From: an uncultured Clostridia bacterium
GTDB lineage: Bacteria; Bacillota; Clostridia; Oscillospirales; Oscillospiraceae
Reading direction: 5' to 3'
DNA: 64,000 nt
Assembly: GCA_947383645.1 (NCBI GenBank)
Contig: CANDEH010000001.1
Span: 16,230 to 80,229, forward strand
This document shows positions 51,748 through 52,061 of this stretch, piece by piece (the stretch's first letter is position 1; the number at the start of each line of letters is the position of its first letter). The notes beneath the pieces were generated by a model. It was not told the DNA's origin. It made no database searches and saw nothing but the letters and a program-made list of their open reading frames with translations. The position numbers and the translations under genes were made by a program.

Positions 51748-51790
51748 AAAAAAAGCGGAGACGGCGAGGGTTCATCCTCACCGCCTCCGC
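51748..51790 (-). terminator. terminator of the Asn/Gln-repeat peptide gene
   Basis: GC-rich hairpin (GCGGAGGCGGTGAGG..CCCTCGCCGTCTCCGC) followed by TTTTTTT on the minus strand. Confidence 0.7.
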
Positions 51791-51795
51791 GCCGC

Positions 51796-51915
51796 TCACT
51801 TCTTGTTCTGGTTCTGATTCTTGTTCTGGTTGTTCTGGTTCTGATTCTGATTGCCGTTCTGGTTACTGTTCTGATTCTGGTTCTGATTCTGATTCTTGTT
51901 CTGGTTCTTGTCCAT
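51796..51915 (-). CDS. 39-aa Asn/Gln-repeat peptide (below the ORF-track cutoff)
   Basis: ATG lies 6 nt after AAAGGAGGTG. Hand translation is MDKNQNKNQNQNQNQNSNQNGNQNQNQNNQNKNQNQNKK*. It has its own terminator. Local GC is about 40% against about 64% for the window. Confidence 0.5.
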   Translation of the reverse strand: MDKNQNKNQNQNQNQNSNQNGNQNQNQNNQNKNQNQNKK

Positions 51916-52061
51916 ACGGACACCTCCTTTCCCGCAGGTGAGTACATGCGCTATTCTTACCAGCTTCACAGGAAATATACCTGCGCGGCGGGATAAAAGC
52001 GGAAAAACCGGCCCATACTATTTCTGCCAATCCGACCACGCCAATCAAAGGAGGAACTGCC

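Follow-up and report, generated by a model that had tools for sequence, protein, structure and literature searches.

A family of asparagine/glutamine-rich micro-protein genes with forespore-type promoters in Oscillospiraceae-like gut Clostridia

The minor small acid-soluble spore proteins (SASPs) of Bacillus (SspH, SspI, SspJ, SspK, SspL, SspM, SspN, SspO, SspP and Tlp) are 34-71 amino acids (aa) long. SspE, the gamma-type SASP of Bacillales, is a repeat-containing protein of ~80-100 aa with GPR sites of the form E-F/I-A-S-E, and it stores amino acids and is broken down at germination. To our knowledge, Clostridia have no gamma-type SASP, which leaves a niche open for an analogue. Hydrophilins are defined by a high hydrophilicity index and by more than 6% glycine. 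On the side of transcription, CATACTA is the textbook -10 element of B. subtilis sigmaG. Here, we describe the NQ gene, which encodes a 39-aa peptide dominated by asparagine (Asn) and glutamine (Gln) and lies on the minus strand of a 64-kb stretch of DNA from an uncultured Clostridia bacterium of the Oscillospiraceae (the whole stretch is called the window below), together with the family of micro-proteins to which it belongs. Spore formation by gut Oscillospiraceae underlies transmission between hosts, and the spore components of these bacteria are almost unknown because most of them are uncultured.

The segment 51980-51748 (minus) is an unannotated monocistronic gene. An earlier account made from the letters alone (the sequence-only reading) had proposed a stand-alone mini-gene here with its own Shine-Dalgarno (SD) sequence, ATG, stop and hairpin-plus-T7 terminator, and all of these elements are present. 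The SD, AAAGGAGGTG (51930-51921), is strong and has a GGAGG core; its description as near-perfect stands, but the spacer to the ATG (TCCGT) is 5 nt and not 6. The coding sequence (CDS) comprises 39 codons at 51915-51796 (ATG 51915-51913, TGA 51798-51796) and specifies MDKNQNKNQNQNQNQNSNQNGNQNQNQNNQNKNQNQNKK, with 18 Asn, 12 Gln, 5 Lys and one each of Met, Asp, Ser and Gly; the earlier counts of Asn and Lys were right, and that of Gln (13) was one too high. An intrinsic terminator (51790-51748) starts 5 nt past the stop and consists of a 15-bp stem with 11 GC pairs and a 6-nt loop (51790-51755), followed by TTTTTTT (51754-51748). The GC content of the CDS is 40.8%, close to the 40% given before, compared with 63.3% for the window, and the unit sits where it had been placed, between the degV promoter (51745-51717) and rbr (from 52062).

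The NQ tract is an imperfect hexamer repeat (Tandem Repeats Finder, TRF: period 6, 18.7 copies, 73% matches), and several reading frames are open across it on both strands, so an open frame alone is no evidence for a gene; the case for one rests on the signals that flank the tract and on how these are conserved. Gln and Lys are encoded by the preferred codons CAG and AAG only. The Asn codon AAT is over-used (6/18 in the NQ CDS versus 12/113 in six other genes of the window, p=0.019), and the repeat therefore stays imperfect. In the predicted fold of the transcript, the coding RNA is nearly free of U and is unstructured except for the terminator, and an Rfam scan of the whole window returned no RNA family. 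The product of an alternative 57-aa frame with a GTG start was not on record in an exact look-up.

We are highly confident that this locus is a real coding gene under selection. Single within-lineage nucleotide polymorphisms in lineages A, B and D are all third-position and synonymous (6/6), whereas by expectation 12% of all changes, or 33% of transitions, would be synonymous. Within each of these lineages, independently assembled loci (11, 9 and 29, respectively) encode one and the same peptide. Eighteen family peptides, pooled (604 residues), consist of 40% Asn, 25% Gln, 13% Lys and 1.3% Gly; Leu, Val, Trp, Tyr, Pro and His do not occur in these residues, and the net charge is +1 to +4 in all 18. 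His and Tyr are one mutation away from AAC, and His, Pro and Leu from CAG, and yet they are absent; Ile is also one step from AAC. An alignment of the family has no invariant column. Many members have a Cys no more than three residues from the C-terminus (NC[KR] or ECN, in L185, L063, L190, L186 and L187 and in P0013, P0017, P0018 and P0023), and some carry another near the N-terminus (MDKNCK...NKNCK); the peptide of the window is Cys-free. The terminal Cys of the other lineages may provide disulfide-mediated pairing or cyclisation.

The NQ peptide is one of a family of N/Q/K-rich micro-proteins, unannotated as a whole, in Oscillospiraceae-like gut Clostridia; we collected 19 distinct peptides of 25-51 aa from gut and bioreactor Clostridia contigs (42-61% GC). 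The identical 39-aa product has been gene-called in 47 blocks of public metagenome assemblies, in the order rbr-NQ-degV-flotillin. Sequencing runs with the window locus are mostly labelled mouse gut metagenome, and lineages of the family occur in gut samples from mice, humans, pigs and cattle. Homologues were found by a protein homology search for which the query was the 57-aa extended frame. Of 22 hits at E<=1e-3 in a HMMER profile scan of 1.84e9 cluster representatives, ~15 are true members; these are mis-called long open reading frames (ORFs), in which a C-terminal M-[DKAE]-...N/Q/K peptide follows the translated SD (GKGGV or KKEV). Scanning metagenome contigs for a degenerate DNA pattern added further members; most of what it returned was unrelated AT-rich repeat DNA, and only high-GC matches with an SD and a start were kept. 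In a lineage that is frequent in human-gut assemblies, the peptide is the 25-aa MKEKNQNKEQNTNQNQEQNQNTNQR, with length variants of 29, 32 and 34 aa, and two members (L102 and L183) are more distant.

Annotation misses the family because its members are below length cut-offs or are mis-called as longer ORFs through the promoter, and in the sources checked they are named nowhere beyond ‘hypothetical protein’. The sequence-only reading knew of no family with such a repeat, and we found none either. The peptide of the window has no Pfam or NCBIfam match at E<=10, none of 18 family members has a Pfam, NCBIfam (E<=1) or PDB match, and literature searches, whether on small spore proteins rich in N/Q or with the peptide strings as text, turned up nothing of relevance.

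The earlier suggestion to look for mini-ORFs with an SD and terminator elsewhere proved fruitful, as 14 loci for which DNA is available share the architecture. The 13 representative loci follow one layout, namely a -35 element G[TC]AT[AG], a 14-15-nt spacer, a -10 element nnnnAnAnTA, a strong SD, an ORF of 25-51 codons and, mostly, a hairpin. The -10 element starts with GG in 10 of the 13, and the distance from the -10 element to the start codon is 35-36 nt in 10 of them (11/14 when L013 is included). The GGAGG core of the SD is found in 12 of the 13 and also in L013, while L183 has AAAGGAG. The two more distant members have GTATA-N18-CATACTA (L102) and GCATA-N17-CATAATA (L183) in place of the N14/15 form. 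Most family loci show a hairpin past the stop, which in L063 is unclear, and one pair of the terminator stem has undergone a compensatory change, from G-C to A-T, between lineages A and B. What many lineages conserve is the ORF and not a mere nucleotide repeat: the start, the frame, the stop before the terminator and the polar-only composition are all retained. A motif-first scan with G[TC]AT[AG]-N14/15-GGnnAnAnTA, covering both strands of 512 kb of high-GC loci, led back to the same genes, in that every match precedes an NQ-type ORF. It also recovered a new, diverged member, MEKERSTNQTNNQNANQSKQCKDKKSGGQTTNQK, which had been missed by the initial composition filter, in L013, a locus fetched independently via DegV. 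The L013 member has largely lost the repeat and has kept the architecture and the polar composition.

The promoter is the best-conserved non-coding feature of the family. In the window, the -35 element GTATA (51980-51976, minus) is followed 14 nt later by the -10 element GGTAAGAATA (51961-51952, minus), which has the form GGnnAnAnTA. GTATA-N14-GGTAAGAATA (51980-51952, minus) is the sole match to the motif on either strand of the 64 kb, where 0.00 (100 shuffles) or 0.01 (200 Markov simulations) matches are expected by chance. G[TC]AT[AG] is kept at the -35 position in 14 of the 14 family loci with DNA, and no sigma-70-type promoter was found upstream of the NQ gene. In C. difficile, sigmaF and sigmaG promoters have been mapped by their transcription start sites (TSSs) in sigma-factor mutants, and the two classes are very alike; a leading G in the -10 element is a sigmaF feature, a downstream A is a sigmaG feature, and spoVT has both (PMC3789822). 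Mapped examples are spoVT (GTATA-N13-GGTAAAAATA), tepA (TAATA-N14-GGTAAAACTA), CD2465 (TAATA-N13-GGGAATACTA), CD2808 (GTATA-N13-GGAGAAAATA) and CD2841 (GAATA-N13-GGCAACAATA) (PMC3789822, Table S6). The NQ promoter is of the same motif class as the mapped promoters of spoVT, tepA, CD2465, CD2808, CD2112 and CD2841; the -10 element of the lineage B NQ gene is exactly GGTAAAAATA and that of L191 is exactly GGGAATACTA. In C. difficile, the promoters of three SASP genes fit a sigmaF-like consensus, yet these genes depend on both sigma factors (PMC7438776). The sequence-only reading had noticed a forespore-type resemblance and called it weak; the resemblance is there, but the adjective does not fit a feature so well conserved and so similar to mapped C. 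difficile sigmaF/sigmaG promoters. By this likeness, the NQ promoter is probably forespore-specific.

Taking the spacing between -10 element and TSS from the mapped C. difficile promoters, we place the start of the NQ transcript near 51943-51946, which gives a predicted 5' untranslated region of ~28-30 nt. The sequence GTACTCA at this predicted start (51945-51939, minus) recurs in the family, and GTAC(T)CA is found 5-7 nt past the -10 element in the window, L121, L063, L185, L187 and L013. This conservation exceeds what a start-site preference alone needs, and GTACTCA may be a regulator site. The genes for SpoIIGA (3260-4060) and pro-sigmaE (3954-4754), which had been reported before, are indeed in the window, so the organism carries core sporulation genes.

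Evidence at the RNA level comes from Logan contigs of metatranscriptome runs, which are unstranded. The depth over the NQ CDS was 38.9 in run X28, 16.3 in X29 and 8.2 in X32, and that over degV was 3.2-3.9, 0 and 0, respectively; in X29 and X32, the depth over rbr was low. The end of one metatranscriptome contig, at 51948, falls near the predicted start. The RNA runs with the human-gut lineage showed flat, DNA-like coverage. These data support transcription of the NQ gene above the level of degV, and they say nothing on its timing or strand. The peptide of the window has a mass of 4.64 kDa, a pI of 10.2, a grand average of hydropathy (GRAVY) of -3.26 and 1.9 nitrogen atoms per residue. AlphaFold gave it no secondary structure (pLDDT 63, pTM 0.15), and the peptide is predicted to be basic, extremely hydrophilic and structurally disordered.

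Taken together, we lean toward a forespore-expressed, disordered, hyper-hydrophilic peptide that resembles the minor SASPs. During sporulation, forespore RNA polymerase with sigmaF and/or sigmaG would start transcription at the NQ promoter, alongside a sigmaG-type rbr promoter that lies back to back with it (described below). The transcript of ~200 nt, with its near-consensus SD, its unstructured coding part nearly free of U and its strong intrinsic terminator, would then be translated, and the peptide would build up in the forespore and the spore core as a minor-SASP-like component. There, it could act as a water-replacing, glass-forming protectant, or as an amide-nitrogen-rich amino-acid reserve released at germination, like the Gln/Asn-rich gamma-type SASP of Bacillus. 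By analogy with these proteins, we put forward a storage or protectant role tentatively, as a possibility that we hold with some doubt. A bolder version appears improbable to us, in which NQ peptides are an unrecognised major solute of the spore core, both a poly-amide ‘glass former’ and an amide-nitrogen store, that replaces gamma-type SASP and is made together with a spore rubrerythrin, both genes being driven by one bidirectional forespore promoter region. In this version, Asn and Gln side chains would replace water in dormancy, and their hydrolysis at germination would feed Gln/Asn-dependent biosynthesis.

Several points weigh against a minor-SASP-like spore peptide and the evidence assembled for it. 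Low-complexity sequence inflates similarity scores, so family membership rests mainly on the shared flanking architecture. The sigma assignment uses motifs calibrated in C. difficile rather than in this uncultured host, and the sigma dependence, translation, spore localisation and function of the NQ peptide are all things that we infer. The RNA evidence is unstranded, and some of the runs marked ‘RNA?’ clearly contain DNA, seen as contigs that span divergent genes or as flat coverage. The peptides lack a GPR-type cleavage motif as well as homology to the SASP families, and their uniform positive charge could mean binding to nucleic acids or other polyanions instead of storage. The two closest sampled relatives, L011 and L012 (DegV 91% identical), have no NQ gene at the syntenic site, so the gene is not essential and is either dispensable or mobile within the genome.

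The main rival to storage is a binding or regulatory peptide. The forespore gene would again be real, but its polycationic, amide-rich product would bind DNA, RNA, the ribosome or a sigma/anti-sigma factor and serve as a regulator, or as a nucleoid- or ribosome-condensing factor in dormancy. Small forespore regulators such as Gin/CsfB and Fin do exist, and the positive charge of all 18 peptides (with the pI of 10.2 in the window), the conservation of Lys/Arg near both termini and the Cys near one or both ends in several lineages all suit such a role. However, the charge in the human-gut lineage is low (+1 to +2), no sequence motif goes beyond composition or fixes a single alignment column, and the rapid drift in sequence and in length (25-51 aa) is more in keeping with a physico-chemical role in bulk than with a specific interface; we regard a binding peptide as unlikely. 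In a further rival, there is no protein-level selection whatsoever, the ORF being a neutral by-product of an expanding (AAYCAG)n hexanucleotide repeat behind an SD-like sequence. The period-6 array, the frames open on both strands and the over-use of AAT agree with this, and AT-rich metagenome DNA, eukaryotic and other, gives many NQ-like ORFs in gene calling. Neutral expansion nevertheless has to contend with a promoter, SD, start, stop and terminator kept around differing tracts in at least 11 lineages, with lengths that are stable within lineages to the point of identical peptides (11, 9 and 29 loci), with polymorphism that is only synonymous, with the absence of hydrophobic, His and Pro substitutions, and with an L013 member that keeps its architecture and polar composition despite the loss of the repeat. 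It is very unlikely.

Two further explanations would move the function away from the peptide. In an attenuator, a leader peptide would sense the charging of Asn- and Gln-tRNA over its 30 Asn/Gln codons and control read-through of the terminator into degV. The NQ gene is upstream of degV in the same orientation in three lineages (the window, L187 and L191, the last with a distant DegV paralogue of 23% identity), and a ribosome terminating at its stop would sit over the 5' arm of the adjacent terminator stem. Yet degV has a strong sigma-70 promoter of its own and a palindromic operator past the terminator, both kept in L011 and L012, which lack the NQ gene; in other lineages, the next gene, whether convergent or unrelated, is served by a promoter of its own; the transcript fold contains no structure that would compete with the terminator; and a fatty-acid-binding DegV has no logical tie to the supply of Asn or Gln. 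We rejected the attenuator on the strength of degV's own promoter, of L011 and L012 and of the missing competing fold, and consider it largely refuted, with hardly any weight left. The other explanation places the functional element on the opposite strand or in the DNA itself, as an antisense hydrophobic (LV)n peptide (ORF 51634-51996, plus) or a CTGGTT protein-binding array. The antisense ORF of the window, of 120 aa with an LVLILV run, is open, and an L/V frame is open in every lineage. The sequence-only reading had itself named action on the other strand as a way in which it might fail, and it survives this point, since no usable antisense start, meaning a start codon preceded by an SD, exists in any lineage examined. 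Half of the lineages examined (5/10) have no upstream start in that frame at all, and the ORF of the window would cross both the terminator and the degV promoter. As for a binding array, the repeat units vary in sequence and number between lineages, whereas the sense frame is conserved. The antisense ORF was rejected for want of an SD-preceded start, and the chance that either form is right is negligible.

Divergent from the NQ gene, the gene rbr (52062-52652, plus) encodes a rubrerythrin with the Pfam domains Rubrerythrin and RUBY_RBDX. Its promoter, GGATA-N18-CATACTA (51991-52020, plus), is of the sigmaG type, lies back to back with the NQ promoter 30 nt away and is unique in the window as a match to GNATA-N17/18-CATNCTA (0.03 expected). 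As read from the sequences, it is kept in lineage B (GGATA-N18-CATACTA) and lineage C (GCATA-N18-CATCCTA), and no sigma-70 promoter was found upstream of rbr. In C. difficile, the rbr gene CD2845 is listed as sigmaG-dependent (PMC3789822, Table S6). With a sigmaG-type promoter and none of the sigma-70 type, the rubrerythrin of the window is probably spore-specific, like CD2845. The gene rbr is divergent from the NQ gene in lineages A, B and C and in L187, which keeps the order rbr-NQ-degV (Rbr 84% and DegV 75% identical to those of the window), and in a second clade the NQ gene is divergent from infC. A precursor of a bacteriocin or of a ribosomally synthesised and post-translationally modified peptide, which would be built of leader and core next to modification or export genes, was considered and rejected, as the neighbours are rbr, degV, flotillin, FMN reductase and, elsewhere, infC, with no maturation genes.

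Downstream of the NQ gene, degV (50774-51619, minus) is preceded by the promoter TTGACA-17-TATAGT (51745-51717, minus). A 41-nt palindrome, GGAGGGTATATAGTTCACTTTGTGAATTATATACCCTCTCC (51730-51690, minus), overlaps the -10 box of this promoter, and its core, TATATAGTTCACTTTGTGAATTATAT, is likewise kept ahead of degV in L011 and L012; the palindrome probably serves as the operator for a repressor of the DegV/FakB-type gene. A TetR gene (47898-48473) lies nearby. An NQ-type gene stands directly upstream of a degV-family gene in L191 (87-1339) as it does in the window and L187. At about positions 2100-2710 of their loci, upstream of degV, L011 and L012 instead have a GerQ-like spore-coat gene with the C-terminus ...TVGNDYIVLYQPDKGRFVTGDLYALKFVDFHQ, recognised by eye only, preceded by a gene with a cortex-lytic-enzyme-like end; neither rbr nor an NQ gene is found there, and L014 and L030 have other genes upstream of degV. 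Elsewhere in the window, the flotillin gene (48919-50433, minus) contains tandem repeats of 54, 33 and 21 nt at 49293-49448, in the part that encodes an Ala/Glu/Gln/Lys-rich coiled coil. Pairs of inverted tandem heptamer arrays, (AATTAGG)x4-5 with (AATTCCT)x4-5, make up a recurring hairpin-forming element at 39729-39826, 61155-61323 and 63198-63345, and a lone array occurs at 16006-16044. The arrays at 39729-39826 are intergenic and flank a unique spacer of ~34 nt.

In the DNA that we sampled, the NQ family carries the clearest forespore promoter signature. If its members are abundant components of the spore core, they would be a new chemical class among the few spore protectants and reserves, and the promoter together with the ORF would offer a simple marker for sporulation capacity in metagenomes. 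They would also provide a minimal natural poly-Asn/Gln peptide with which to study solubility or self-association.

Among known systems, short leader genes such as hisL, pheL and the pyrBI leader share with the NQ gene a short ORF made of one or two codon types that is followed by an intrinsic terminator. They differ from it in their competing RNA structure and conserved downstream operon, while at the NQ locus the next gene has a promoter of its own. Q/N-rich prion-like or polar-zipper domains, such as Sup35 N and the prion-like domain of Clostridium botulinum Rho (PMC4703818), are likewise dominated by Asn and Gln, with side-chain amide ladders, and gels or amyloid are possible in principle. 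The NQ peptides, by contrast, are free-standing at 25-51 aa, lack Tyr, are poor in Gly, have a Lys every few residues and are net positive, features that would disfavour amyloid.

Hydrophilins, LEA and CAHS proteins share with the NQ peptide its extreme hydrophilicity, its predicted disorder and a link to a dehydrated dormant state. Only the hydrophilicity half of the hydrophilin definition applies, since the peptide has 1 Gly in 39 residues (2.6%) and the family 1.3% overall, and compared with LEA and CAHS proteins it is far shorter and has no amphipathic-helix repeats. With SspE, the family shares a Gln/Asn-rich low-complexity composition (40% Asn plus 25% Gln), and it differs in its length of 25-51 aa, in having no E-F/I-A-S-E motif in any of 18 members and in having no Pfam match. 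The alpha/beta-type SASP model of Pfam (SASP), with its conserved DNA-binding helices and GPR site, gave no match either, at E<=10 for the peptide of the window and E<=1 for the 18 members.

The minor SASPs are the closest parallel. Like NQ genes, theirs are tiny, mostly mono- or bicistronic units with a strong ribosome-binding site and a terminator, and their products are very hydrophilic, poorly conserved and have no known enzymatic role. They are transcribed from a forespore (sigmaG/sigmaF) promoter, and the proteins can be extracted from dormant spores and are broken down at germination. The gene of the window has the size and design of this class (<75 aa, hydrophilic, a short unit with a strong ribosome-binding site), with its 39 aa, GRAVY of -3.26, AAAGGAGGTG and a terminator 5 nt past the stop, and its putative forespore promoter is unique in the window, conserved in the family and like mapped C. 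difficile promoters. The NQ peptides differ in having no sequence relation to these proteins, as 0/18 match any model in the whole of Pfam-A and NCBIfam, including those for SspH/I/J/K/L/M/N/O/P/Tlp, and in being basic with a 65% Asn+Gln alternating repeat. The minor SASPs are known from Bacillales, whereas the NQ peptides are from Oscillospiraceae-like Clostridia and are putative spore components. The earlier likening to minor SASPs holds for the gene design; the peptide shows no SASP homology, and the likening to hydrophilins does not hold for glycine. The NQ gene would work like a minor SASP gene, belongs to no known SASP family and encodes an extreme, alternating Asn/Gln sequence.

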